In this document: positions 6,619-39,365 of the stretch, in pieces
Position numbering within the stretch: the first letter of the stretch is position 1
Layout: each line of letters opens with the position of its first letter
Source of the DNA: Mycobacterium sp.
Lineage (GTDB): Bacteria; Actinomycetota; Actinomycetes; Mycobacteriales; Mycobacteriaceae
DNA: 64,000 nt
Assembly: GCA_050701515.1 (NCBI GenBank)
Contig: JBOGDB010000104.1
Reading direction: 5' to 3' (one strand)
Made by a program: the position numbers and the translations under genes
The notes under the pieces: model-generated
What the model saw: only the letters and a program-made list of their open reading frames with translations
Database searches by the model: none
What the model was told of the DNA's origin: nothing

Positions 6619-7866
6619 ATGAGTTTGCAAGCACCGCCGCTTCGCGACTTGCGCGCGCAGGTGCACGACGCCGCGCGCCGGGCCCGCGTGGCCGCCCGCA
6701 CTCTGGCCACGCTGAACACGGAGACCAAGGACCGCGCCCTGCATGCGGCCGCCGACGCCGTGCTCGCGCGCATGCACGACATCCTCGCCGCCAACGAGGA
6801 GGACCTGGAGGCCGCCCGCGCCGCGGGGACACCGGCCGCCATGCTGGACCGCCTCGCGCTCAACCCGCAGCGTGTCGACGGCATCGCCCAAGGCCTGCGT
6901 CAGGTCGCCGGTCTGCCCGATCCGATCGGCGAACTGGTGCGCGGCCGCACCCTGCCGAACGGCCTGCAGCTGCGCCAGCAGCGGGTACCGCTCGGTGTGG
7001 TCGGCATGGTCTACGAGGGCCGGCCCAACGTCACCGTGGACGCGTTCGGACTGACGCTGAAGTCCGGCAATGCCGTGCTGTTGCGCGGCAGTTCGTCCGC
7101 GGTGCGCTCCAATGCGGCACTGGTATTGGCGTTGCGGACCGCGCTGCTGGCCGAGCAGCTGCCCGAGGATGCGGTGCAACTGCTGCCGGCCGACGACCGT
7201 GCCAGCGTCACCCATCTGATCCAGGCGCGCGGCCTTGTCGACGTGGTGATCCCGCGCGGTGGGGCCGGGCTGATCGATGCGGTGGTGCGCGACGCAATGG
7301 TGCCGACCATCGAGACCGGAGTCGGCAATTGCCATGTGTACGTGCATGAGTCGGCCGATCTGGATGTCGCCGAACGAATTCTGCTGAACTCCAAGACCCG
7401 CCGCCCCAGCGTGTGCAATGCCGCCGAGTCACTGCTGGTCGACGCGGCGATCGCCGACCGCGCGCTGCCCCGATTGATGCGCGCGCTGCAGGATGCCGGC
7501 GTCACCGTGCACACCGACCCCGACGAGGACGATCTGCGTGCCGAGTTCCTGTCGATGGACATCGCGCTGGCCGTGGTGGACGGGCTGGACGCCGCGATCG
7601 ACCACGTCAACGAATACGGCACCGGCCACACCGAAGCCATCGTGACGACGAACCACGCTGCGGCGCAACGGTTCACCGAACGAGTCGACGCGGCAGCGGT
7701 GATGGTCAACGCTTCGACGGCGTTCACCGACGGCGAGCAGTTCGGCTTCGGCGCCGAGATCGGCATCTCCACCCAAAAGCTGCACGCTCGCGGACCGATG
7801 GGTCTACCAGAATTGACTTCAACCAAGTGGATCGTGTTCGGCGACGGGCACACCCGACCTGCCTGA
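6619..7866 (+). CDS. proA: Gamma-glutamyl phosphate reductase
   Basis: Motifs [24 protein letters not shown] and [10 protein letters not shown]. Start ATG 6619 follows a TACGCT -10-like box. Confidence 0.95.
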
Positions 7867-7882
7867 TGACAGGAGCAACACA

Positions 7883-8758
7883 GTGAGCGTCCCCGCGCGC
7901 CCGGTACCGCTGTTCGCAGACATCGACGATGTGGCCCGACGGCTGTCCGAAACCGGCTATCTGCCCGACACCGCAACGGCCACCGCGGTGTTCCTCGCCG
8001 ACCGGCTGGGTAAGCCGCTGTTGGTGGAGGGCCCGGCCGGCGTCGGCAAGACCGAATTGGCCCGCGCGGTCGCGCAGGCCACCGGCTCGGGCCTGGTGCG
8101 GCTGCAGTGCTACGAGGGTGTCGACGAGGCCCGCGCGCTCTACGAGTGGAACCACGCCAAGCAGATCCTGCGGATCCAGGCCGGGTCCGGCGATTGGGAC
8201 CAAACCAAGACCGACGTCTTCTCCGAAGAGTTCCTGTTGTCGCGTCCGCTGCTGACCGCCATCCGCCGCAGCGAGCCCACCGTGCTGCTGGTCGACGAGA
8301 CCGACAAGGCCGACATCGAAATCGAGGGTCTGCTGCTCGAGGTGCTCAGCGATTTCGCGGTGACGGTCCCCGAGCTGGGCACCATCACCGCCGAGCGCGC
8401 GCCGTTCGTCCTGCTCACCTCCAACGCCACCCGCGAGCTGTCGGAGGCGCTCAAGCGGCGTTGCCTGTTCCTGCACATCGACTTCCCCGATCCCGACCTG
8501 GAGCGCCGCATCCTGCTGTCGCGGGTGCCCGAACTGCCCGAGCACCTGGCCGACGAACTGGTGCGCATCATCGGCGTGCTGCGCGGCATGCAGCTGAAGA
8601 AGCTGCCGTCGGTGGCCGAAACCATCGACTGGGGGCGCACCGTGCTGGCGCTCGGGCTGGACACCATCAGCGACGAGACCATCGCGGCCACCCTCGGGGT
8701 GGTGCTCAAGCACCAGTCCGATAATCAGCGTGCCAGCGGGGAGCTGAGGCTGAACTGA
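7883..8758 (+). CDS. MoxR-family AAA+ ATPase (Rv2426c-like)
   Basis: Walker A EGPAGVGKT, Walker B LLVDETDK, and ALKRRC. Confidence 0.9.
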   Translation: MSVPARPVPLFADIDDVARRLSETGYLPDTATATAVFLADRLGKPLLVEGPAGVGKTELARAVAQATGSGLVRLQCYEGVDEARALYEWNHAKQILRIQAGSGDWDQTKTDVFSEEFLLSRPLLTAIRRSEPTVLLVDETDKADIEIEGLLLEVLSDFAVTVPELGTITAERAPFVLLTSNATRELSEALKRRCLFLHIDFPDPDLERRILLSRVPELPEHLADELVRIIGVLRGMQLKKLPSVAETIDWGRTVLALGLDTISDETIAATLGVVLKHQSDNQRASGELRLN

Positions 8759-13624: not shown

Positions 13625-14467
13625 ATGGCCGTCGTGGTGGTGACCGATTCGTCGTCGCGCCTGCAGCCGGATGAGTTGAAGCAGTGGGAGATTCGGCAGG
13701 TACCGCTGCACGTACTGGTCGACGGAAGCGACCTGCGCGACGGCGTGGATACCGTGCCTTATGACATTCACGAACGCCCCAATGTAACCACCGCGGGCGC
13801 CACGCCTGCAGAGCTGGCCGACACCTACCGCCAGGCGCTGCACGACAGCGACGCCGACGGAGTGGTCGCGGTGCACATTTCGGCAGCGTTGTCGAGCACC
13901 TTCAGCTCGGCGGTGCAGGCCGCCCGTGAGTTCGGCCCGGCTGTGCGGTTGGTCAACTCCAGGTCGGCGGCGATGGGTGTGGGCTTCGTGGCACTGGCCG
14001 CGGCGCGGTCGTCGGCGTCCGGCGACGACCTGGATGCCGTTGAAGCCGCGGCTCGTTCGGCCGTCCCGCGCGGGGACGCGTTCATCGTGGTGCACCGGCT
14101 GGATAATCTGCGGCGCAGCGGCCGAATCGGCCGGGGGGCGTCGTGGTTGGGTACGGCGCTGTCGTTGAAACCGCTGTTGTGCCTTGACGTGGACGGCCGT
14201 TTGGTGCTGGCTCAGCGGATCCGCACCGTGACGAAGGCGCATGCGGCGATGATCGACCAAGTCGCGGACATCGTGGGCGAGAGGCGAGCGGCAATCGCGG
14301 TGCACCATGTCGACAACCATGACGCCGGCGACGAGGTAGCCGCGGCGCTGACGACGCGATTGCCCCAGGTTGAGCGGCTGACGGTCAGCGACATGGGACC
14401 GGTTCTCTCCATCCACGTCGGCGGCGGAGCGGTCGGCGTGTGCGTACAACTGCTGGAAGACTCGTGA
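13625..14467 (+). CDS. DegV family fatty-acid-binding protein
   Basis: VVTDSS, HISAALSST, LRRSGRI and SLKPLL. Confidence 0.9.
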   Translation: MAVVVVTDSSSRLQPDELKQWEIRQVPLHVLVDGSDLRDGVDTVPYDIHERPNVTTAGATPAELADTYRQALHDSDADGVVAVHISAALSSTFSSAVQAAREFGPAVRLVNSRSAAMGVGFVALAAARSSASGDDLDAVEAAARSAVPRGDAFIVVHRLDNLRRSGRIGRGASWLGTALSLKPLLCLDVDGRLVLAQRIRTVTKAHAAMIDQVADIVGERRAAIAVHHVDNHDAGDEVAAALTTRLPQVERLTVSDMGPVLSIHVGGGAVGVCVQLLEDS

Positions 14468-14479
14468 CCGCGAAGGTAA

Positions 14480-15538
14480 TCAGCACGCGGCGCGGCCGGT
14501 GACCGGCGGCAGGTCCGCCAGCGTCACGATGCCGGGCGTCGCCGCGACAACCGCCGGGACGGCGTTGGTCACCGGCAGGGCGGTATAGATCATGCCCAGG
14601 CCCATGAAGCCGGGCTCGGTCCAGTCCTTCGGCGGCAGACAGTGCAGCACCGTGCGCATATTGGGCAGCCCGAAGACCTGGATGACGTGACCGTGCTCGA
14701 GCGGCTTGGGCGGTGTCACGTGATCACCCATGGTCCAGTTGAAGCCCACACTGACCACGTTCTTGTCGCCGACCCAGCCGCGGTGATAACCGTAGACACC
14801 GCCCACCGTGCCCTTGGGGATCTGCATGAAGCCGAGATCGGTGTGGCCGGTGGCGGGGGTGAAGGTGACGTCGAACGTCATCCGGTCCAGCTTTGCGCCG
14901 ATGGCGTCGGCCATCATCGCCGCCGACTCGGCGAACACCTCGCTTTCCCGCCGGACGCCCTCGGCCAGGCCGGGGGTATCGGGGTCCTGGGAGAAGCCCA
15001 TCGCCGTTTGGGTGCCGGCCGACTCATAAGTGGAGCAGTCCACCGACTCGGTGATCCTGATCTCGTCGACCCGCTCACAAGACCCGCTGAGCACCATGCC
15101 GACCATGTTGGTCATGCCCGGATGAGCGCCACTGCCGAAGATCGTCGAATTGCCCTTTTCGCAGGCCTTTCGGATGTGATCGAGGTCCTCGGGGGTCTGT
15201 TTGCCGCCGGTGATCCAGGCAGCGCTGGAGCAGACGTTGACGCCGGACTCCAGTAGCCGAGTCAGCTCGTCGATGTCGGGCCACAGCGGGTTGTAGCAGC
15301 AGGCGTCCGGCCTCAAGTCGATCAGCGCATCGATGTCGTTGGTGGCCGTCACTCCGGTGGGCTCGGGCCAGCCCGACAGTTCGGCGGCATCCACCCCGAC
15401 CTTGTCGGCGCCGTGCGCGTAGACGCCGACCAGCTCCATGTCGGGCCGGCCGATGATGGCGTGCAGCGACCGGCGCCCGATGTTTCCGGTGGTCCACTGG
15501 ATCACCCGAAGCGGCCGGTCGGAAGTAGATGTGCTCAT
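14480..15538 (-). CDS. Dihydrodipicolinate-reductase-like NAD(P)-dependent oxidoreductase
   Basis: Rossmann start VIQWTTGNIG and GSGAHPG. It is the C-terminal 352 aa of the 949-aa ORF. Confidence 0.8.
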   Translation of the reverse strand: MSTSTSDRPLRVIQWTTGNIGRRSLHAIIGRPDMELVGVYAHGADKVGVDAAELSGWPEPTGVTATNDIDALIDLRPDACCYNPLWPDIDELTRLLESGVNVCSSAAWITGGKQTPEDLDHIRKACEKGNSTIFGSGAHPGMTNMVGMVLSGSCERVDEIRITESVDCSTYESAGTQTAMGFSQDPDTPGLAEGVRRESEVFAESAAMMADAIGAKLDRMTFDVTFTPATGHTDLGFMQIPKGTVGGVYGYHRGWVGDKNVVSVGFNWTMGDHVTPPKPLEHGHVIQVFGLPNMRTVLHCLPPKDWTEPGFMGLGMIYTALPVTNAVPAVVAATPGIVTLADLPPVTGRAAC

Positions 15539-15647
15539 GCGGTAGACCCTAATTGGGTGGCTCCACAGTCGGGAGTTGATCCACAGCCTGCGCTGCCCGC
15601 CGCTCGTTGGTTCAGTCTGGACGGCCGCCGTGCCTACCGTCGGGGGC

Positions 15648-28350: not shown

Positions 28351-29691
28351 ATGCAGGTATCGATCATCGAGACGTCCGGGCTTGGCGACCGCAGCTACGT
28401 CGTGACCGAAGGCGACACGGCGGTGGTCATCGATCCGCAGCGTGACATCGACCGCGTGCTCGAGGTCGTCGGCGACGCCCGCATCACGCACGTGCTGGAA
28501 ACCCATATCCACAACGACTACGTGACGGGTGGGCTCGAGCTGTCGCGGTCGCTGGGTACCGAATACGTGGTGCCCGCCGGGGACGACCTCGGCTATGGGG
28601 CACGCAGAGTCCGCGACGGCGACACCATCGACGCCGGCCCAATCACGCTGCGGGTCATACATACTCCCGGCCACACCCATCACCACGTCAGCTATGAGTT
28701 GCGCGACGCATCGGGCACCACCGTGGGGGTTTTCACCGGTGGCTCCATGCTGTATGGCAGTTCCGGCCGTACCGACCTGCTCGGCGCCGATGACACGGTG
28801 GCCTTGACGCGGGCGCAGTATCACTCCGTCCGGCGCCTTGCCGACGTGCTCCCGGCCGACGCGGAGGTATACCCGACCCACGGCTTTGGGAGCTTCTGCT
28901 CCGCCACGCCCGTTACCGAGGACTCGTCCACGATCGGGCATCAACGCGACACCAACCCGGCGTTGACCAAGGACGAGCAGAACTTCGTCGATGACTTGCT
29001 GGCCGGCCTGTCGGCATACCCCGATTACTACGCACACATGGGCGTGATCAACACCAATGGTCCTGCGGCCGTCGACCTTTCGATGCCCAAGGTCATCGAA
29101 GCCGATGAGCTCCATCGCCGCCTTGAAGCAGGGGAGTGGGTCGTCGACCTTCGCCATCGCGTCGCGTTCGCCGCCGGACACTTGACGGGCAGCTTCGGAT
29201 TCGAAATGTCCGGATCGTTCGTGACATATCTCGGCTGGCTGCATCCCTGGGGTACACCGCTGACGCTGATCGGAGAAGACGACGATCAAATCGCAGAGGC
29301 ACGACGCGAACTCATCCGGATCGGTGTCGACGTCATCGCCGGTGCCGCAGATATCCACACCGTCGGGGCCGCGGCCGAACAGCGCACATATCGGGTGGCC
29401 GACTTCGCCGAGCTGGCCGATGCGATCGGCCGCGACGAGCTGACCGTCCTCGACGTGCGCCAAACAGACGAATTCGACGAATCCCGCATACCGGGCGCGG
29501 TCAACATCCCGCTTCACGAACTGGCCGACCGGATCGGCGAACTCCCCGCCGGGCAGGCGTGGGTGCACTGCACGACCGGCTACCGCGCGTCGATCGCGGC
29601 CTCCGTCCTGGACAGGCACGACCGGGATGTGGTGCTGATCGATGACGAGTTCGAAGCGGCCGAAGACCTGGACTTGACAGCCGATCGGTAG
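28351..29691 (+). CDS. MBL-fold persulfide dioxygenase-rhodanese fusion (CstB-like), copy 1
   Basis: ETHIHND, TPGHT, YPTHGFGSFCS; C-terminal rhodanese with VHCTTGYRA. Confidence 0.8.
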   Translation: MQVSIIETSGLGDRSYVVTEGDTAVVIDPQRDIDRVLEVVGDARITHVLETHIHNDYVTGGLELSRSLGTEYVVPAGDDLGYGARRVRDGDTIDAGPITLRVIHTPGHTHHHVSYELRDASGTTVGVFTGGSMLYGSSGRTDLLGADDTVALTRAQYHSVRRLADVLPADAEVYPTHGFGSFCSATPVTEDSSTIGHQRDTNPALTKDEQNFVDDLLAGLSAYPDYYAHMGVINTNGPAAVDLSMPKVIEADELHRRLEAGEWVVDLRHRVAFAAGHLTGSFGFEMSGSFVTYLGWLHPWGTPLTLIGEDDDQIAEARRELIRIGVDVIAGAADIHTVGAAAEQRTYRVADFAELADAIGRDELTVLDVRQTDEFDESRIPGAVNIPLHELADRIGELPAGQAWVHCTTGYRASIAASVLDRHDRDVVLIDDEFEAAEDLDLTADR

Positions 29692-29700
29692 AGACTAATC

Positions 29701-30312
29701 TCAGCCGATGTTTCTGGCGAGCGCGGATTCGCCGGGCCCGGTGAGGTCTTCGAGGGCGTCGGGTCGTGCGGCCATCGCCATCAGGATCGCTTCGGCGGGC
29801 CCGCGGACCTCGGGCCCGCTGCCGTGGCTCCAGTCCAGATCGGTGGCGACCAACCGCACGCCGCGGGAGCGCTTCGCGCCCCGCACCGCCGGCACGGTGA
29901 GCGCATAGTCCAGCACGGCGCGCAGCCGCTCTGGAGGAATGGCGCGCGGTATGCGGAGAGGTCGGCGGATGTCCTGCTGATGAATCATGCCGTCCACGAG
30001 CGCGATCATGCCGCCGAAACCCGCGGTCAGGCCGCGAGGACGGATGGAGGCACGCGCTAGCTCGGTGAGCTGCTCGGGTGAGCGGGTGGCGTTTTCTGCC
30101 ACACCGACGGCATTGACGCGGTGGGGCAGGAATCCGCCCTTGGCGAAACGCTTCACCAAGCCCCAGCGGCTGAGCTCCTCGTAGCTGAGCACGTGGGCAG
30201 CGACGTCCCGTACTCGCCACTGCTCACACAGGCTGGGCTGCTCCCATTGATCGGGTGACAGTCCGGCGAGCAGGTCGGCGAAGTCTTGACGTTCCTCGCA
30301 GGCCATCTGCAT
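29701..30312 (-). CDS. Mycothiol-dependent maleylpyruvate isomerase (DinB/MDMPI) family protein
   Basis: PSLCEQWRVRDVAAH and IHQQDIRRPL. RBS GGAGG precedes ATG 30312. Confidence 0.85.
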   Translation of the reverse strand: MQMACEERQDFADLLAGLSPDQWEQPSLCEQWRVRDVAAHVLSYEELSRWGLVKRFAKGGFLPHRVNAVGVAENATRSPEQLTELARASIRPRGLTAGFGGMIALVDGMIHQQDIRRPLRIPRAIPPERLRAVLDYALTVPAVRGAKRSRGVRLVATDLDWSHGSGPEVRGPAEAILMAMAARPDALEDLTGPGESALARNIG

Positions 30313-30350
30313 CGTCGATGCCTCCTGATTGCTCGACGCCATCGGATGCC

Positions 30351-30845
30351 TCAGTCCTGTTGATTGGCTTGGCTTTTCGCCAGATCAGCAAAGCGCTTCA
30401 GCGTGCCGGTCCAGCCGTCCGGGTGGTCGAAGACCGCCCGCATCTGTTCGGTGGCGTCGCGGTAGCGCTCCAGGTTGCGGTGGCACAGATCCACGCGGGT
30501 GCGACCGGAGCCGTCATCGGTGAAAGTCACCTCGACTTCGGTTTCGAAATCCGGATCGAACTGCCAGTTCGCGCCGATCTGCCACAGCAGCACGACTTTA
30601 CGTGGCGGATCCCACGCTGCGACCCGGCCCCATTGGCAGTCGCTGCCGTCCACACCACGCTCGAACCACCGCCCGTTGGTGCCGGGTTCGAGGACCACCC
30701 CGGCGATGTCTGCGCTACCGATGGAATGTTCCTTCGGCCAGAATTCCGTCATTCTGGTGGTGAACAATTCGAAGGTCCGCGCCGGTGGCAGCGGTACGCT
30801 CACCGATCGGACAACCTCTACTACTGCGGCGGATTCGGTGCTCAT
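30351..30845 (-). CDS. SRPBCC (Aha1-like) ligand-binding protein
   Basis: F..RMTEFWP, WDPPRKVVLLW, TEVEVTF and GWTGTL. Confidence 0.85.
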   Translation of the reverse strand: MSTESAAVVEVVRSVSVPLPPARTFELFTTRMTEFWPKEHSIGSADIAGVVLEPGTNGRWFERGVDGSDCQWGRVAAWDPPRKVVLLWQIGANWQFDPDFETEVEVTFTDDGSGRTRVDLCHRNLERYRDATEQMRAVFDHPDGWTGTLKRFADLAKSQANQQD

Positions 30846-30854
30846 CGATACTCC

Positions 30855-31199
30855 TCACTTGTCGTTGTCGTCGTCGGAATGGGCTTGGGCCTCGGCCTCG
30901 GCGGCCGCAAGGATCGCGAAGTTGTCCAGGGTGGTTTCCCAGAATCGGTCGAAGTAGTCACGCACGGCCATCAGCCCCGCTTGGTTGATGCGATACAGAC
31001 GACGGGTGCCTGCTACCGACTCCACGACCAGCTCCGCGTCCTTGAGCACGCGGAGGTGTTGCGACACCGCCGGTCGCGACACCGGCAGCTGATCGGCCAG
31101 CACGCCAACGGCGATCGGGCCGGCCAGCAGCTTCTCCAGGATGGATCGCCGGGTCCGATCCCCGAGCGCGTCGAGAACCGTGTCCGCCGAAGTTGCCAT
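30855..31199 (-). CDS. ArsR family regulator (SRPBCC-associated type)
   Basis: ALGDRTRRSIL and SRPAVSQHLRVLK; acidic tail. Confidence 0.9.
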   Translation of the reverse strand: MATSADTVLDALGDRTRRSILEKLLAGPIAVGVLADQLPVSRPAVSQHLRVLKDAELVVESVAGTRRLYRINQAGLMAVRDYFDRFWETTLDNFAILAAAEAEAQAHSDDDNDK

Positions 31200-31213
31200 A
31201 ACAGTAAGTGTGT

Positions 31214-31243
31214 ACGAACGGTAAGTCTGCGTCAACCGTTCGT
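31214..31243. promoter_or_regulatory. Perfect 9-bp inverted repeat (ACGAACGGT-N12-ACCGTTCGT) over the ArsR promoter
   Basis: Arms at 31214-31222 and 31235-31243. A minus-strand TTGACG -35-like hexamer overlaps the spacer and the 31235 arm. Confidence 0.6.
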
Positions 31244-33109: not shown

Positions 33110-34360
33110 CTACTCGTCGGGACTGTGCATCTCTTGCGAGTGGGTTTCATACATCCGCACGGCAACGATAAGGCCGGAGACCACTGTGATGGCGGCGGCG
33201 GCCCACACCGCGGCGCGCAGCCCCCAGAGGTCGGCGGCGATGCCTCCGACGATCGCGCCGGCGGCATAACCGCTGTCGCGCCACAGTCGGTAGATCCCGA
33301 CGGCGCGGGCCCGCCAGAGCGGATGGGCCACATCGCCGATCGCGGCCAACAGTGTGGGGTAGACCATGGCGGTGCCGGCGCCCAGCAGGGCGGAGGCCGC
33401 GATCCAACCGGTGAAGGCGTCGACGCTGGCGATCAGCGCTAGCGCCGCGGCCTGAGTGAGCATCCCGGCCGTGATGAGGTGCTTGCGGCCCCAGTGGTCG
33501 GACAGCGCACCGGTGACGATTTGTCCCGCCCCCCAAACGGCCGGGTACACCGCCACCAGAATCCCGATGCGTTCGACGGACATACCGGTGGTAGCGAACA
33601 AGATCGGGAACAGGCCCCACGACATTCCGAAGTTGAGGTTGTTGACGAGACCGGCCTGACTGGCCGAAGAAAGGGCCGGCTCGGTGAAGCTTGTGCGGGT
33701 GAAGATCTCCCGGTTCGACGGCCCGCCATGGCTTGCCGCGTGTTGCTCGGCCTCCAGGCGCGCGTGCCCGCGAGTCTCTCGGACGAATACCACGCTCAGG
33801 CCCAGGCCGATCAGGGCGTAGGAAAGGCCGAGCAGAAACGGCGCCGGCCGCAAGCCGTGGTGGGCGGCGAGGTAGCCGGCGACAACCGCGGTCAGGGCCA
33901 CGGCGCCGTAACCCGCGGCTTCGTTGAAACCCATGGCCAGGCCGCGTTGGCGCGGACCCACGAGGTCGATCTTCATGACGACGGTGGTCGACCAGGTGAG
34001 TCCTTGGTTGATCCCCAGCAACACGTTGGCGGCGACGACCCAGCTCCATGATGGCGCCCAGATCAGCAGCAGCGGAACAGGAATCGCGATCAGCCAGCCC
34101 ACCACCAGCACCGGCTTTCGGCCAAATCGATCCGACCATGTGCCGGCGAAGTAGTTGGTGGCGGCCTTGGTGATCCCGAATGCCAGCACGTAGGTGAGCA
34201 GGAAGGTATAGCCGGTCAGGTGGAAGTGCTGCTCGGCCAGCAGCGGTAACACGGTTTGTTCCTGACCGACCATTCCGCCGACGAGCGCGTTGACCGCGAC
34301 GAGCAGGCTGAATTGAGCCAGGTTGGCGCGCAATCCAAGCTGTGGAGGGGTTGTGCTCAT
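33110..34360 (-). CDS. MFS transporter
   Basis: MFS motif A SDRFGRK and SDHWGRK, about 12 TM helices. ATGA overlap with the upstream gene. Confidence 0.9.
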   Translation of the reverse strand: MSTTPPQLGLRANLAQFSLLVAVNALVGGMVGQEQTVLPLLAEQHFHLTGYTFLLTYVLAFGITKAATNYFAGTWSDRFGRKPVLVVGWLIAIPVPLLLIWAPSWSWVVAANVLLGINQGLTWSTTVVMKIDLVGPRQRGLAMGFNEAAGYGAVALTAVVAGYLAAHHGLRPAPFLLGLSYALIGLGLSVVFVRETRGHARLEAEQHAASHGGPSNREIFTRTSFTEPALSSASQAGLVNNLNFGMSWGLFPILFATTGMSVERIGILVAVYPAVWGAGQIVTGALSDHWGRKHLITAGMLTQAAALALIASVDAFTGWIAASALLGAGTAMVYPTLLAAIGDVAHPLWRARAVGIYRLWRDSGYAAGAIVGGIAADLWGLRAAVWAAAAITVVSGLIVAVRMYETHSQEMHSPDE

Positions 34361-35724
34361 GCGCCAGTTGTTAGTCGACCGCCGGTGGCCCGGACCCAGT
34401 CCTGAGGGCCGCCGTCGAGCACCGCCAGATCGCGGTGTCCGGCTCGCTGCAGCAGGCTGGCCGCGCTCATCGAGCGTTCCCCGTGGCCGCACATCACGAC
34501 GGTCGGCTGGTCGGGCAGATCGTCGGCCCGGGAGGCGATCTCGCCGAGTTCGATGTGCATGGCGCCCGGCAGGTGGCCGCCGAGGTATTCAGAATCTTGC
34601 CGGATGTCCAGGACAAGTCGACCGTTGAGCAGGTTTGGCGGAGTCAACGCGATATGGGTCGTTTCGTGGCCGGCCGCGGTCCACGCTGCCATCGATCCGT
34701 CGAGTTCGCCGACGACGTTGTCGTAGCCGATTTTAGCTGCTTGCCAAGCGATCTCGGCGGCGTCCTGGTCGGAGTCGCGCACGATCACAAGTGGACGCTC
34801 GGCGGGCGCCAGCCAGCCCAGCCAGCTGGCGAACACCGAACGTAAGGGGTTCGAGATGGCGCCCGGTATATGCGCGGCACCGAACCGGTCGATGGGGCGT
34901 GCGTCAATGAGTACAGCACCGTCGACAAGCTGCGCCCGAACCGCATCGACACTCAGCGGGGCCAGCGTGGGTTCGCCGTCCAGCAGAGCCGGGCCGACGC
35001 GGTTGATCTCGCCGAGCCGGCGGAAATACGGCGGATAGCTGCCCAGCGAACCGAGAAGCTCTGCGACGAAGGCATTTTCATCGGGCGCTCGCAGCAGCGC
35101 GTTGGTGGCGAGTTCGTGGCCGATCGTGCTGGTGCGTTCCACGCCGGACGGTGCCGAGCAGAAGGACCCGGCGCCATGCGTCGGCCATACCCCGACGTGA
35201 GCGGGCAGGGCGGCCAGTCGGCGTAGGGAAACGTACTGGGCCCGGGTGAGCTCCTCGGTGCGTTCATTGGACACCAGGTCGGTGCGGGCCGCAGACCCGA
35301 CGATCAACGACCCGCCGGTGAACACTCCGACCTCGCGGTCGCCGTCGAGCAACAGAAACGCGAGGTGCTCGTGGGTATGGCCGGGTGTGAGCAGGGCGCG
35401 CAAGCGCAGGCCGCCGAGGTCGACCTCGTCGCCGTCGTGCAGCCCGGTGTGGGCGAACTCGCGGTCGCCGAGCGCCGACGCGAGCAACCGGGTTTGGCCC
35501 GTCGCACTGAGCTGGTATGCGCCGGAGAGGAAGTCGGCGTGCAGATGTGTGTCGGCGGCGTACGCCACGGTCAGGCCACGCCGCGCAGCGGCCGCATGGA
35601 CGGACCGCAGGTCTCGGCTCACGTCGACCGCCAGCGCCCGACCGTCACCGAGGTCGACGAGATAGGCGGTGTTGCCCAGCCCTTCATCGACCAGTGGGAC
35701 CAAGTCGATACCGGAAACTGTCAT
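34357..35724 (-). CDS. MBL-fold persulfide dioxygenase-rhodanese fusion (CstB-like), copy 2
   Basis: DTHLHADF, TPGHT, PTHGAGSFCS; C-terminal rhodanese VMCGHGERS. Confidence 0.85.
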   Translation of the reverse strand: MTVSGIDLVPLVDEGLGNTAYLVDLGDGRALAVDVSRDLRSVHAAAARRGLTVAYAADTHLHADFLSGAYQLSATGQTRLLASALGDREFAHTGLHDGDEVDLGGLRLRALLTPGHTHEHLAFLLLDGDREVGVFTGGSLIVGSAARTDLVSNERTEELTRAQYVSLRRLAALPAHVGVWPTHGAGSFCSAPSGVERTSTIGHELATNALLRAPDENAFVAELLGSLGSYPPYFRRLGEINRVGPALLDGEPTLAPLSVDAVRAQLVDGAVLIDARPIDRFGAAHIPGAISNPLRSVFASWLGWLAPAERPLVIVRDSDQDAAEIAWQAAKIGYDNVVGELDGSMAAWTAAGHETTHIALTPPNLLNGRLVLDIRQDSEYLGGHLPGAMHIELGEIASRADDLPDQPTVVMCGHGERSMSAASLLQRAGHRDLAVLDGGPQDWVRATGGRLTTGA

Positions 35725-36215
35725 TTCCTCCCTCCGTATGTCGGCTGAGGACGCCGGCCAAGAACAGTGTTGTAGATGAACGATGGAATGCAGAAGTGGG
35801 TGATGCTGGCCAGCGCGCCCACCAGAATGAGCGCCGCGCCGAGCGCCAAACCCAAGATGTTGGAACCGAGGGAAAACGCCCAACCGGTCGCCAACACCCA
35901 CGCCGTCGCGACACCGAAGACGAATCGTCGTTGTCGCCCCGATTTCGGGAACGGCCCCGTACCGGTCAGGTAGCGAAACCCGTAGTTGTAGAGCAGATCG
36001 AACGGGTGAAACGGGAGGAGTATGCCGACGGACGTGATCGCCGCGAGCACCCATAGCACCCCCGGTGACATCAGCGCGACACCGATAACCGTGACCAGTG
36101 TGCCGAGGGTGTACGTCCACCGCAACCACGGCGCCAGACTCTCGAGCATCTCATCGTCGAGTCCGCAAAAGCCTTGAGCTTCAAGGCGACTCCGAACGGT
36201 CGGGTTGACAGTCAT
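35721..36215 (-). CDS. DUF4395-like membrane protein
   Basis: Four TM helices, RQRRFVFG and C-terminal FCIPSFIYN. ATGA-coupled to the CstB-like gene. Confidence 0.7.
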   Translation of the reverse strand: MTVNPTVRSRLEAQGFCGLDDEMLESLAPWLRWTYTLGTLVTVIGVALMSPGVLWVLAAITSVGILLPFHPFDLLYNYGFRYLTGTGPFPKSGRQRRFVFGVATAWVLATGWAFSLGSNILGLALGAALILVGALASITHFCIPSFIYNTVLGRRPQPTYGGRK

Positions 36216-36232
36216 GTCCGACTCCCTTTCGA

Positions 36233-37003
36233 TCAGGCCGGTGGGGGAGTGCCGTCGGGTACGGCCTGGCCGCCGTGCCGATGGAGCCCGGGTACGAGCA
36301 TCGGGACTCGGCGGCGATAGTCGTGGTACTGATCGCCGAGCGCCGCCGCGAGGTCACGCTCTTCGAGCTGCAGCGCGATCAGGATGTAACCCGTTGTCGC
36401 GACGGCGAAGAGCAGATGGCCTGCGGTCATCTTCGGCGTGGCCCAGAACGCGATGAAGAAGCCCAGCATGATCGGATGGCGCACGACGCGGTAGAGCAGC
36501 GACGTGCGGAACCCGAGTTCGGTGTACGGCTGGCCGCGCCAAGCCAGGTACACCTGGCGCACGCCGAACAGATCGAAGTGGTTGATCATGAACGTCGACA
36601 ACAGGACCATCGTCCAGCCCAGTCCGAACAGGACCCACAGGATGATCTGGCCCGGCGCCCACGTCACGTCCCAGACGACGGTCGGCATCGTGCGCCACTG
36701 CCAGAACAGCAGGAACAGCAGCAGGCTCGATATCAGCACATAGGTGCTGCGCTCAATTGTCTTGGGTACCAACCGCGTCCATTGACGCTTGAACGCCGGC
36801 CGCGCCATCACACTGTGCTGCACGGCGAACAGCCCGAGCAGAAACACATTGACGACCACCGCTACCCCAATCGACGCGGCGACGCCGTTATCGATGCTGC
36901 GGGGCACCACAAGGTTGCCCATAAAGCCGATCGCGTAGAGGAATGCGGCAAGAAAGACAAGGTAACTGCCGGCGCCGTAACTGATCGTGAGAATGCGGTT
37001 CAT
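36233..37003 (-). CDS. mddA: Methanethiol S-methyltransferase (ICMT-fold)
   Basis: [42 protein letters not shown] and LEERDL. Confidence 0.8.
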
Positions 37004-37049
37004 CGTGTCCTCCGTTGTCCATGCCGTTTGAGATCGTCTGGCGGTGTTA

Positions 37050-37077
37050 TAGTGTTTAATAGATTGCTTGAACACTA
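37050..37077. promoter_or_regulatory. 28-bp palindrome, candidate ArsR-rhodanese operator
   Basis: TAGTGTTTAA-N8-TTGAACACTA, arms 9/10 complementary, in the AT-rich divergent intergenic region. Confidence 0.7.
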
Positions 37078-37122
37078 GAACGATGGAATGCTGAAGTCAA
37101 CAGGAATCTCGGGGAAGGTCCG

Positions 37123-37794
37123 GTGATGGCGGATCGGGCGGCCAAGGATGCGCTCTATGACGGATTCGCCGCGGTGGCGAAGGGCTTTGCGAGTGGTCGG
37201 CGCGCGGAGATCATCGATGTGCTGCAGCAGGGCGAGCGGTCGGTGGAGGATCTGGCCGCCGCGATTGAGCAGAGCACCGCGAACACCTCCCAGCACCTGC
37301 GTCAGCTGGCCCACGCGGGTCTGGTCCGGAGCCGTCGCGACGGTTCGCGCATCATCTACTGCCTGACCAGTCCCGAGGTCGGTCAGGCGTGGGCCACGCT
37401 GAGCGCGCTCGCAGTCGATTACCTGGCCGATATGAAGCGTCTGATTGCGGACTACCTCGGCGACCGCGACGGCCTGGAGACGATCGGCCGCGCGGAGCTG
37501 GCGAAGCGATTGCGACGCGACGACATCGTCGTGCTCGACGTGCGCCCGGAAGCGGAGTTCCGCGCGGGGCACATCGAGGGTGCCCGTCAGATCCCGCCGG
37601 GCGAGCTGCAGCAGTTGCTGGCGGCGCTGCCCGACGATCGCGAGATTGTCGCGTATTGCCGGGGTCCGTACTGTGTCTACGCCGACCAGGCCGTCCGTGC
37701 CCTCGCCGCCCGCGGACGTCGCGCGCTGCGGCTCGAAGATGGCTTCCCGGAGTGGGCACGGGCCGGCTTGCCGGTCGCATCAGGCCCGCACTGA
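37123..37794 (+). CDS. ArsR family regulator fused to a rhodanese domain
   Basis: ArsR HTH (ANTSQHLRQL) followed by VLDVRPEAEF..GHIEGA and AYCRGPYC. Confidence 0.9.
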   Translation: MMADRAAKDALYDGFAAVAKGFASGRRAEIIDVLQQGERSVEDLAAAIEQSTANTSQHLRQLAHAGLVRSRRDGSRIIYCLTSPEVGQAWATLSALAVDYLADMKRLIADYLGDRDGLETIGRAELAKRLRRDDIVVLDVRPEAEFRAGHIEGARQIPPGELQQLLAALPDDREIVAYCRGPYCVYADQAVRALAARGRRALRLEDGFPEWARAGLPVASGPH

Positions 37795-37801
37795 CGTGCC
37801 G

Positions 37802-38335
37802 CTAGCCCTGCGACCGAATTGATGCCAGCGCCCCGAGAGCGGCCAGCGCGTCGAGTGTGTCGTCCGCGTTCGGGGTTGCCTCCGGATCGGCGATCCACTG
37901 CAGCATCAACCCGTCGCACACTGCCATCAGCACCGATGCGATCGCGGCGAGGTTGTCGGGGACGGACATGCCGATGTCGTTCATGTGTTGGGTAGCCGTG
38001 CGCACGGCCGACTCACGCACCCCGGCATATCCGGCGGCCAGCCGTTCTCGCAGCTCATCCGACCTCAACGCGGGAGCATACGACTCGATGCATGCATGCA
38101 CCGACGACCGCAGTTCGCCAAAGGAGTCGATCGCGGCGTGCAGAATCGCGGAGAGTTGATCGCCCGCGGCCAGGCCGGCCGCCATTTCGAATGCGTTCTC
38201 GACCCTCTGATTCCACATCCCGAAACATTGCCCCAAGGCCTCGTTGACCAGCGCATCCTTGCCACCGAAGTGGTAATTGATCGAGGCGACGTTCAGCCCC
38301 GCCGCGCCCGCGATGCTGCGCGACGACGTGGCGGC
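37802..38335 (-). pseudogene. TetR family regulator lacking its 5' end
   Basis: The frame upstream of the track ORF reads AATSSRSIAGAAGLNVASINYHFGGKDAL (HTH). Helix 1 and the start codon are absent. Confidence 0.8.
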
Positions 38336-39365
38336 GCTCGCGCCCGCCGCCTGCTCATGCCGGCGTTCAACGGGGCATCGTTACGTGCATACCGCGACCT
38401 CGTCGCTGAAATCGCCCGGGCCGAGGTCGACCGGTGGGCTGCCGCCACGGAAGTGCCTGCGCTCGACCGGATGAACGCGCTGACCCTCGAGGTGATCATG
38501 CGGGTCGTGTTCGGCGTGACCGACGAGCGCACCCGCGAGCAGCTCACGCCTCGATTGCCGCATCGTCGACATCAGCCCAATCGTGTTACTGGGCTGGGTG
38601 ATTCCGAGCCTGAACCGCTTCGGGCCGTGGAAACGCTTCTTCGACAACCAAGCCGAGATCGACAAGCTGCTCTACGCCGAGATCTCCCAACGCCGGTTGG
38701 CGCCGGACCTCCATGAGTGCACCGACGTGTTGTCCCGATTGCTACACGACGGCAGTGAAACTGGTGATGCACCGCTTACCGATAGCGAGCTTCGCGACCA
38801 ACTGGTCACCCTGCTCCTGGCCGGGCATGAAACCACCGCAGCCGCGTTGGCGTGGACGCTGTATGAACTTGCCAACCATCCCGACTTGCAGGATATGGCG
38901 TACGTCGCTGCCCGTGACAACGACGACAAGTTCCTCGAGGCCGCTCTCAAAGAGAGCATGCGCCTGCATCCCGTGATTGCCGCCGCCGCACGCAAACTCA
39001 CCCGCGACCAAGTCATCGGTGGCTGGCACCTACCGGCGGGCATCGTCGTCACGACGTCGATCCTGCTTGCTCACCAACGTGCTGACAACTACCCGGACAC
39101 CTGGACGTACCGGCCCAGCCGGTTCCTCGAGAACGAGGTCGAACCCAATACCTGGCTGCCTTTCGGTGGCGGTGTGCGTCGCTGCATCGGCGCTGGGTTT
39201 TCGATCATGGAGGGCACCGCCGTCCTGCGCGAGATCCTTACCCGCTATGTGCTTGCGGCCGGCGATAAACTCGAACGCGGCCGGGTCCGCAACATCACCA
39301 ACGTTCCACGCGGGCGGGCCCGCATCGCCATCACACCGAGAATCCGCATTTCCACTCATATCTAG
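38336..39365 (+). pseudogene. Cytochrome P450 pseudogene (5' deleted, frameshift near 38558)
   Basis: Begins at ARARRLLMPAFNG. A frame change follows LTPRL. LLAGHETT, ESMR and PFGGGVRRCIG lie in the second frame. Confidence 0.85.

Follow-up and report, generated by a model that had tools for sequence, protein, structure and literature searches.

The methyltransferase MddA is reported to methylate methanethiol (MeSH) and hydrogen sulfide (H2S), detoxifying both (PMC11445057), and metagenomes cited in the same paper predict mddA in 5-76% of soil bacteria. Persulfides are oxidised by persulfide dioxygenases (PDOs); the Streptomyces coelicolor enzyme ScPDO, which belongs to the SCO0618-0621 gene organisation, oxidises glutathione persulfide (GSSH) in vitro (PMC7533328). 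Here we describe a locus in which relatives of both proteins are encoded side by side. It lies in a 64,000-nucleotide stretch of Mycobacterium sp. DNA (assembly GCA_050701515.1, contig JBOGDB010000104.1), hereafter called the window. Four co-oriented genes encode an MddA, a DUF4395 membrane protein, a metallo-beta-lactamase (MBL)-fold protein with rhodanese domains and a transporter of the major facilitator superfamily (MFS), and they face a gene for an ArsR-type regulator fused to a rhodanese domain. On balance, sequence comparison leads us to favour the reading that these genes form a persulfide-responsive detoxification operon combining S-methylation with oxidation and export. As part of this reading, the locus would be the mycobacterial version of a widespread, undescribed module built round the ArsR-rhodanese repressor.

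Four closely packed genes face an ArsR-rhodanese gene

The window, on a contig referred to as C104, is part of a draft genome of 4.4 Mb in 334 contigs (93% complete), and the relatives of this genome are mycobacteria. On the minus strand, four co-oriented intact open reading frames (ORFs) with no internal stops lie between 33110 and 37003. The genes of the locus are as follows.

36233-37003, minus strand: mddA, first operon gene, 256 aa; matches NF045656, with a GGAGG Shine-Dalgarno sequence 5 nt before the ATG
35721-36215, minus strand: DUF4395v, predicted four-helix membrane protein, 164 aa; matches PF14340
34357-35724, minus strand: MBL-rhodanese, made of an MBL fold, a Cys-less rhodanese and a catalytic rhodanese, 455 aa; assigned by domain and PDB matches
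33110-34360, minus strand: MFS transporter of the 12-transmembrane type, last operon gene, 416 aa; matches PF07690
37123-37794, plus strand: ArsR/SmtB winged helix fused to rhodanese; matches HTH_5 and Rhodanese

The mddA stop codon is followed by the DUF4395v start after 17 nt, and the two remaining junctions, DUF4395v/MBL-rhodanese and MBL-rhodanese/MFS, are ATGA overlaps. The ArsR-rhodanese gene is divergent from mddA, with an intergenic gap of 119 nt. The original prediction, made from the DNA letters, had described four co-oriented genes with one 17-nt gap and two ATGA junctions, divergent from an ArsR-rhodanese, and the ORF coordinates bear out every one of these particulars. It had also stated that no sulfide:quinone oxidoreductase (SQR) or TauE is present; this agrees with the genome, whose single TauE is encoded on contig C137 and whose 71 Pyr_redox_2 matches all fall outside C104. 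A consensus scan found no terminator-like site at any gene junction of the operon. Across the region, the sole terminator-like hairpin is internal to the MFS gene, against 2.5 such sites expected by chance in shuffled sequence. The GC content is 0.61-0.70 throughout the region, where no compositional break was seen.

The first gene product covers positions 2-238 of 238 of the NCBIfam equivalog profile NF045656 with 373.4 bits (cut-off 270), and it is the genome's only copy above that cut-off. It is 70-80% identical to the MddA proteins of homologous clusters and 64-70% identical to those encoded by stand-alone mddA genes of the family. We regard it as an MddA equivalog, a SAM-dependent membrane enzyme predicted to methylate MeSH and H2S to dimethylsulfide (DMS). 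The second gene product scores 48.4 bits on PF14340 (gathering cut-off 24.5). A housekeeping DUF4395 of the same genome, encoded on contig C108, scores 149 bits on the same profile, and pairwise BLAST between the two gave no significant match. Among 121 sampled genomes of the same GTDB family, 106 encode a DUF4395 of the housekeeping type (~145 bits). The weak PF14340 score and the separate housekeeping copy place the operon protein in a divergent subfamily, which we named DUF4395v. The MFS protein matches PF07690 (MFS_1) with 168 bits.

The neighbourhood is conserved round a core to which mddA is peripheral

Conservation was followed in the 121 family genomes and in a DUF4395v scan with one genome per species, which yielded 55 loci (numbered with the prefix L). 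The neighbourhood search proposed beforehand, for mddA with DUF4395 and a PDO-rhodanese, was positive: no fewer than 12 further actinobacterial genomes have the five genes side by side, and rearranged subsets occur in other phyla. The five-gene carriers include Mycolicibacterium moriokaense, M. tusciae, sp. P9-22, Mycobacterium sp. ACS1612 and metagenome-assembled genomes (MAGs); M. pyrenivorans has the first three genes. In the five-gene loci, identity to the window proteins is 67-78% for DUF4395v and 76-81% for MBL-rhodanese. Conservation within the module is highest for the MFS transporter, with 83-90% identity in the five-gene loci (85-90% in mycobacterial clusters) and 51-62% in modules of Chloroflexota and Pseudomonadota. 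The regulator gene is co-directional in most five-gene loci, with a product only ~50% identical to that of the window, and the window shares its divergent arrangement with MAG MFD04944 (locus L026), to which it is most closely related. Elsewhere the cluster is found in unrelated genomic contexts, for example beside PEPCK in M. moriokaense. A literature search returned no paper in which mddA is connected with rhodanese or DUF4395; the original prediction had likewise known of no description of the combination.

Orthologues of MBL-rhodanese (54-72% identity) were found in 6 of the 121 family genomes. In all six loci an MFS orthologue comes next and an ArsR-rhodanese gene faces or abuts the pair; mddA and DUF4395v are absent. 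The conserved core therefore consists of regulator, MBL-rhodanese and MFS, and the same core also occurs in a presumed Streptomyces. In mycobacteria, mddA is missing from the set at two loci (L025, L030), and in four Chloroflexota loci an ArsR-rhodanese gene faces DUF4395v-MFS-MBL-rhodanese, again with no mddA. Thirteen of the 121 family genomes have mddA; it is inside the cluster in the window's genome only, and most copies stand alone, among them those of five sampled genomes. Within 7 kb of DUF4395v in the 55 loci, ArsR-rhodanese was found in 25, MFS in 22, MBL-rhodanese in 19 and MddA in 16. Thus the combined mddA-DUF4395-CstB-like-MFS unit originally proposed stands in so far as the five genes are adjacent in relatives, and gives way to a core of regulator, MBL-rhodanese and MFS to which mddA is a peripheral add-on.

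Methyltransferase genes adjoin DUF4395v in Pseudomonadota as well. In the gammaproteobacterial loci L039 and L051, an MddA above the cut-off (347 and 321 bits) is encoded next to DUF4395v, in a different gene order and with 50-60% identity; in L051 DUF4395v precedes MddA, the MFS and ArsR-rhodanese genes are divergent, and MBL-rhodanese is absent. In the betaproteobacterial loci L038 and L041, the neighbour of DUF4395v is an ArsM-like class-I methyltransferase (NF008823, 226 bits, below the cut-off of 263), followed by ArsR-rhodanese, a canonical PDO (THIHADH, LTGDTLFVG) and an MFS orthologue. Because MddA stands beside DUF4395v in Gammaproteobacteria and an ArsM-like enzyme takes its place in Betaproteobacteria, the methyltransferase link is more than one inherited accident and recurs independently.

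These data bear on an alternative in which mddA is a passenger. The unit would then consist of ArsR-rhodanese, (DUF4395), MBL-rhodanese and MFS, and mddA would be a promoter-proximal insertion in one actinobacterial lineage, with no coupling of methylation to oxidation. In favour of this, mddA is missing from 6/6 core modules in other genera, from L025 and L030 and from the Chloroflexota versions; the loci that do link mddA are, with few exceptions, closely related (70-80% identity) and possibly derived from one event; and the 17-nt gap after mddA is the sole non-overlapping junction of the operon. In the MddA tree most forks are unsupported and clustered and stand-alone copies are not separated, so the tree accommodates one recruitment of mddA as readily as several, and the mycobacterial mddA-linked loci may represent a single event. 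However, mddA is found beside DUF4395v again in Gammaproteobacteria, in another gene order and at 50-60% identity, the slot in Betaproteobacteria is taken by another methyltransferase family, and the operon has stayed intact while neighbouring TetR and P450 genes are broken. We consider a passenger mddA improbable, although it fares best among the alternatives to a combined persulfide-detoxification operon.

Several loci of the scan deserve separate mention. In the betaproteobacterial MAG locus L041 (3835-6619, 6956-12044) the module comes directly after merR-merT-merP-merA-like genes, as judged by N-termini and sizes, which suggests that it is carried on a resistance island. Plasmid matches to the cluster were only two, both weak, so it is not common plasmid cargo. 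One of them is on a Rhodococcus antarcticus plasmid (NZ_CP110617.1, 99.6 kb; L018), where 6 kb separate a distant DUF4395v-like gene (35% identity; 7613-8089) from an MBL-rhodanese paralogue (14360-15601). Assemblies labelled 'Gemmatimonadales' (GCA_034377365.1; L021) and 'Sericytochromatia' (GCA_050262635.1; L023/L035) also contained the five-gene cluster of mycobacteria, with proteins 67-79% identical. Horizontal transfer across phyla was considered and dropped: the L021 MddA groups with that of M. pyrenivorans on branches of 0.02-0.03, and the Sericytochromatia contig has mycobacterial neighbours. These contigs are probably mis-binned mycobacterial DNA.

The MBL-rhodanese protein carries Gly in place of a canonical Asp ligand

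Two PDB entries matched MBL-rhodanese along its entire length, 3tp9 (E 3.9e-75) and 3r2u (E 6.6e-46), the latter of which we take to be Staphylococcus aureus CstB. Profile searches identified one MBL and two Rhodanese domains, the architecture of a type III PDO-sulfurtransferase. The loop of the middle rhodanese, RDSDQD, has no Cys, and that of the C-terminal rhodanese reads C412-GHGERS. The protein keeps H60-x-H62-x-D64, H116 (GHT), H183 and C189 (HGAGSFC) and C412; C189 and C412 are its only cysteines. In ETHE1-type enzymes the Asp of the '[ST]GD' motif is the third iron ligand. Here this Asp is replaced by Gly138 (FTGGS), a departure from the metal site of type III PDOs that is found in all orthologues and in the paralogue encoded in the window.

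Sequences of this kind fall into three clades: an Asp type (LTGDxLFIGDVGRPD), the clade of the paralogue (THIHNDY / FTGGSMLYG) and that of the operon protein (THLHADF / FTGGSLIVGSAARTD). No canonical Asp-type CstB was found in the window's genome. Among the 93 nearest full-length representatives of a 50%-identity library, 51 were of the Gly type and 33 of the Asp type. Translation of the primers in the PMC7533328 supplement gives THVHNDY, TGGSLL and an MFF start, in line with Gly-type proteins of presumed Streptomyces. In these genomes, eight of which were inspected for adjacency to CsoR, the Gly-type protein is encoded beside TauE, a CsoR-like repressor and a YgaP-like rhodanese, as published for SCO0618-0621; their name rests on the published gene order and the primers. 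The translated primers and the gene order together indicate that ScPDO itself is of the Gly type and, given its measured activity, that a missing Asp is compatible with dioxygenase activity. A reading of the MBL domain as dead because of the missing Asp was accordingly softened, since ScPDO carries the same Gly.

By analogy with ScPDO, the operon protein would be a Gly-type member of the CstB/ScPDO-like persulfide dioxygenase-sulfurtransferases. The original prediction had called it CstB-like. The label is apt for its full-length CstB architecture; with Gly138 at the position of the Asp ligand, the protein belongs to a Gly-type subfamily, which includes the active ScPDO, and is not a canonical CstB. 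Its setting also departs from the association of cst-type systems with CstR/CsoR, SQR and TauE: an ArsR-rhodanese stands in for the regulator and an MFS protein for the transporter, and the contig has neither TauE nor Pyr_redox_2.

A second MBL-rhodanese gene lies at 28351-29691 on the plus strand. Its product is 39% identical to the operon protein and belongs to the ScPDO-type Gly clade (THIHNDY / FTGGSMLYGSSGRTD / PTHGFGSFC). Immediately before this gene are an lppR-like gene for a PknH_C lipoprotein, and lepA; regulator, TauE and rhodanese genes are absent beside it.

DUF4395 proteins are tied to rhodanese sulfurtransferases

DUF4395v homologues numbered 407, with identities of 64-86% among the best 120 of the 407. 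An alignment of 20 sequences showed three invariant elements: HPFD (70-73), Q95-R96 and a single Cys142 in FCIPS. The AlphaFold2 model (pLDDT 78) has four long helices, and the positive-inside rule predicts that HPFD and Cys142 lie at the cytoplasmic face of the membrane. A fold search of the PDB returned only generic helical bundles (best E 0.79, TM-scores 0.2-0.4) and no analogue. The literature that could be searched mentions DUF4395 only incidentally, once in each of two papers.

In four loci (L072, L076, L078, L079), two from Bacteroidota, one from Acidobacteria and one from Anaerolineaceae and hence spread over three phyla, DUF4395v is fused at its C-terminus to a rhodanese with a catalytic Cys. 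DsrE-like genes adjoin DUF4395v in other loci. The housekeeping gene of the window's genome stands in a conserved row (contig C108, L080 3202-6278) that encodes LmeA, thioredoxin, DUF4395, a tandem rhodanese (CysA2-like) and DUF1416, with glnR alongside. The fusions, the DsrE neighbours and the housekeeping row indicate that DUF4395 proteins are consistently tied to rhodanese sulfurtransferases. The idea that DUF4395 acts as a membrane partner is thereby supported and, through the four fusions, sharpened: the partner is the rhodanese domain.

These associations also bear on a reading of the operon as a sulfur salvage system. The MFS protein and/or DUF4395 would import thiosulfate or organosulfur compounds, the rhodanese and MBL parts would free assimilable sulfite or sulfide, and MddA would clear surplus MeSH. 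Thiosulfate import is carried out by small membrane proteins that work with a sulfur carrier (YeeE/YeeD type), the housekeeping DUF4395 is encoded beside a CysA2-like thiosulfate sulfurtransferase, and the family match of the MFS protein leaves the direction of transport either way. On the other hand, the type of regulator and the logic of a repressor acting at a palindrome resemble stress sensors, and PDO chemistry uses up reduced sulfur instead of supplying it. We hold salvage to be unlikely, and place it behind a passenger mddA.

The regulator looks like a persulfide sensor with its Cys pair in the rhodanese loop

The regulator gave matches to HTH_5 (42 bits) and Rhodanese (63 bits) and to NF033788 (70 bits, cut-off 55), in agreement with an ArsR winged-helix protein. 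Its score on the BigR model NF040642 was 34 bits, against a cut-off of 155. BigR and SqrR have their sensing Cys pair in the DNA-binding domain. The window regulator lacks this pair: C80, the only Cys of its ArsR domain, is variable, and no Cys of the DNA-binding domain is conserved among 21 ArsR-rhodanese homologues. Both cysteines of the rhodanese loop C179-R-G-P-Y-C184 are invariant in 21/21 of these homologues, which come from several phyla. Judging by these residues, the ArsR-rhodanese looks like a persulfide sensor of an undescribed kind; a literature search found no functional study of this fusion type.

The 119-nt intergenic gap contains a candidate operator and possible promoter elements.

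37046-37081, no strand: candidate operator in the middle of the gap, inverted repeat GTTATAGTGTTTAA-N8-TTGAACACTAGAAC with 14-nt arms
37072-37100, minus strand: possible mddA promoter read by hand, with -35 TTGACT (37100-37095), a 17-nt spacer and -10 TAGTGT (37077-37072) in the right arm of the palindrome
37048-37053, plus strand: possible -10 TATAGT of the arsR-rhodanese gene, read by hand, inside the left arm of the palindrome

The palindrome is midway between the divergent starts, 42-43 nt from each start codon. The window has a single copy of its core, AGTGTTYAA-N8-TTRAACACT, where 100 shuffles gave an expectation of 0, and a search of the whole genome at 0 mismatches again gave one site. 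Ahead of their ArsR-rhodanese genes, relatives have similar palindromes built on TTCAA/TTGAA half-sites. A consensus promoter scan of the region returned nothing by its stricter rule, so the elements read by hand must be considered weak. The genome's only other site resembling the operator core is C214:3630-3653, with 2 mismatches.

An ArsR-type protein facing a methyltransferase gene could also belong to a system for detoxifying chalcogens or metalloids (Se, Te, As, thio-As), in which the methyltransferase would volatilise, the rhodanese would handle Se or act in reduction, and the MFS protein would export a methylated or conjugated product. This reading could draw on the metalloid sensors of the ArsR family, on the ArsM-like enzyme in the methyltransferase slot of L038 and L041 and the adjoining merRTPA-like genes, and on several weak NCBIfam matches of the rhodanese domains to seleno-protein-related families (TsoB, TsoR, LYCAU). 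It is the least probable of the alternatives: the ArsM-like match stays below its cut-off of 263 and the window methyltransferase is a bona fide MddA equivalog; the DNA-binding domain has no conserved Cys where an As(III) or metal site would be located; the loops CGHGERS and CRGPYC are of the six-residue sulfurtransferase type and not the CX5R of arsenate reductases; the partners are PDO-type enzymes and, in other loci, DsrE proteins; and the cluster contains no ars genes.

A proposed persulfide-responsive operon

Under the reading we favour, the inducer, the biochemical steps, the exported substrate and the part played by DUF4395 are those we infer as follows. In unstressed cells, an ArsR-rhodanese dimer would sit on the central palindrome and block both divergent promoters. 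Sulfane sulfur (persulfide or polysulfide, arising as sulfide builds up) would persulfidate Cys179 of the regulator, probably followed by a bridge to Cys184, and the repressor would leave the DNA. The mddA-DUF4395-MBL/rhodanese-MFS genes would then be transcribed as one translationally coupled message. MddA would convert H2S to MeSH and on to DMS, which would be lost by diffusion. MBL-rhodanese would oxidise low-molecular-weight thiol persulfides to sulfite, and Cys412 of its C-terminal rhodanese would combine sulfite with persulfide to give thiosulfate. The MFS protein would take the place that TauE has in cst/ScPDO-type operons and export the oxidised product. DUF4395 may serve as the membrane partner of the rhodanese domain, either accepting and passing on sulfane sulfur through Cys142/His70 at the cytoplasmic face, or conducting sulfur species across the membrane.

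Several points weigh against this persulfide-operon reading. The canonical Asp ligand is missing from MBL-rhodanese, and the protein is only ~37% identical to the ScPDO-type clade, so that the activity of ScPDO is evidence by analogy. No SQR gene that would make persulfide from sulfide was found near the operon in the Pyr_redox_2 scan of contig C104. The gene mddA is dispensable for the module, being absent from L011-L016, L025, L030 and all Chloroflexota versions, and the MddA tree does not set clustered copies apart from stand-alone ones. No NCBIfam model matched the MFS protein above cut-off, and export, both in substrate and in direction, is a presumption. A metalloid or chalcogen function would also suit the betaproteobacterial modules, with their ArsM-like methyltransferase and adjoining mer operon. 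Lastly, co-transcription is suggested by gene spacing and the inducer by analogy.

A broader proposal, which we offer only tentatively and think may well fail in one part or another, joins four elements. There would be a widespread uncharacterised reactive-sulfur system of ArsR-rhodanese, DUF4395, Gly-type PDO-rhodanese and MFS; the regulator would represent a new class of persulfide sensor, with a rhodanese CX4C loop where others use cysteines of the DNA-binding domain; DUF4395 would be a membrane acceptor or conduit of sulfane sulfur on which rhodanese domains dock; and the methyltransferase slot would be filled interchangeably by MddA or an ArsM-like enzyme.

On this broader proposal, the methyltransferase slot would integrate the volatilisation of sulfide and MeSH with persulfide oxidation, and persulfide stress would be the physiological trigger of bacterial DMS production from H2S in soils. 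The role of MddA has so far been argued from tolerance phenotypes; the operon context turns it into a testable one, namely DMS formation from H2S or MeSH within a reactive-sulfur stress response. For DUF4395, the rhodanese fusions, the conserved linkage and the invariant Cys and His at the predicted cytoplasmic face provide a first functional context. A large Gly-type branch of 'type III PDOs' that includes ScPDO and lacks the textbook Asp bears both on annotation rules and on the enzymology of the metal site.

Flanking genes

Just beyond the operon, 29701-31235 on the minus strand carries a triad of ArsR (HTH_20/HTH_5), SRPBCC/AHSA1 and DinB-like genes. The same triad also accompanies the cluster in L026, L028, L029, L030 and L035, and partly in L015, and it may be a further linked unit. 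On the other side, the operon is adjoined at 37802-39365 by a TetR gene without its N-terminal helix-turn-helix and by a P450 gene with its 5' part missing and the remainder in two frames. The genome measures 4.4 Mb, compared with 5.1-6.5 Mb in the genus sample. The broken TetR and P450 genes and the small genome suggest ongoing gene loss in which the sulfur operon has been kept intact.

Comparison with known systems

Characterised MddA proteins include those of Pseudomonas deceptionensis, Mycobacterium tuberculosis and Bradyrhizobium. The window MddA resembles them in its equivalog-level match and as a membrane protein of the same size. The literature found describes no persulfide-type operon for these; the window mddA heads one and faces a sulfur-type repressor, by which it may be controlled.

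The S. aureus cst genes (CstR, CstA, CstB, SQR, TauE) and the S. coelicolor ScCsoR-ScPDO-TauE-rhodanese group (PMC7533328) share with the window an enzyme made of MBL, pseudo-rhodanese and catalytic rhodanese. As in these circuits, the enzyme gene is accompanied by a repressor gene and followed by one for a membrane transporter, and the Gly at the metal site is that of ScPDO. Unlike them, the window has an ArsR-rhodanese in place of a CsoR-family CstR and an MFS protein in place of TauE, with SQR and CstA absent; its operon adds mddA and DUF4395, and its enzyme forms a clade of its own.

The BigR/SqrR/YgaV systems (bigR-blh; ygaVP, PMC9774250) are alike in having an ArsR repressor near a PDO-type gene and a palindrome in the promoter region. 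In ygaV-ygaP, the ArsR regulator and the rhodanese are separate, whereas the window has both in one polypeptide. The invariant Cys pair of the window regulator is in the rhodanese loop CRGPYC and, unlike that of BigR/SqrR, not in the DNA-binding domain.

Escherichia coli YgaP (PMC3551814) and YeeE/YeeD offer a parallel for the membrane partner, since they join a rhodanese to a small helical membrane protein, by tethering or by pairing. In architecture, the fusions of DUF4395 with rhodanese are analogous to YgaP and to YeeE/YeeD-type pairs; DUF4395 differs in having four helices, matches neither the YgaP-TM nor the YeeE family, and has no fold match in the PDB.

Collectively, the parts and the logic of this locus, a repressor, a PDO-sulfurtransferase and an exporter, are already known from the cst, BigR and ScCsoR systems. 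What would be new is the link to MddA, the connection of DUF4395 with rhodanese, the type of sensor and the Gly-type PDO branch.

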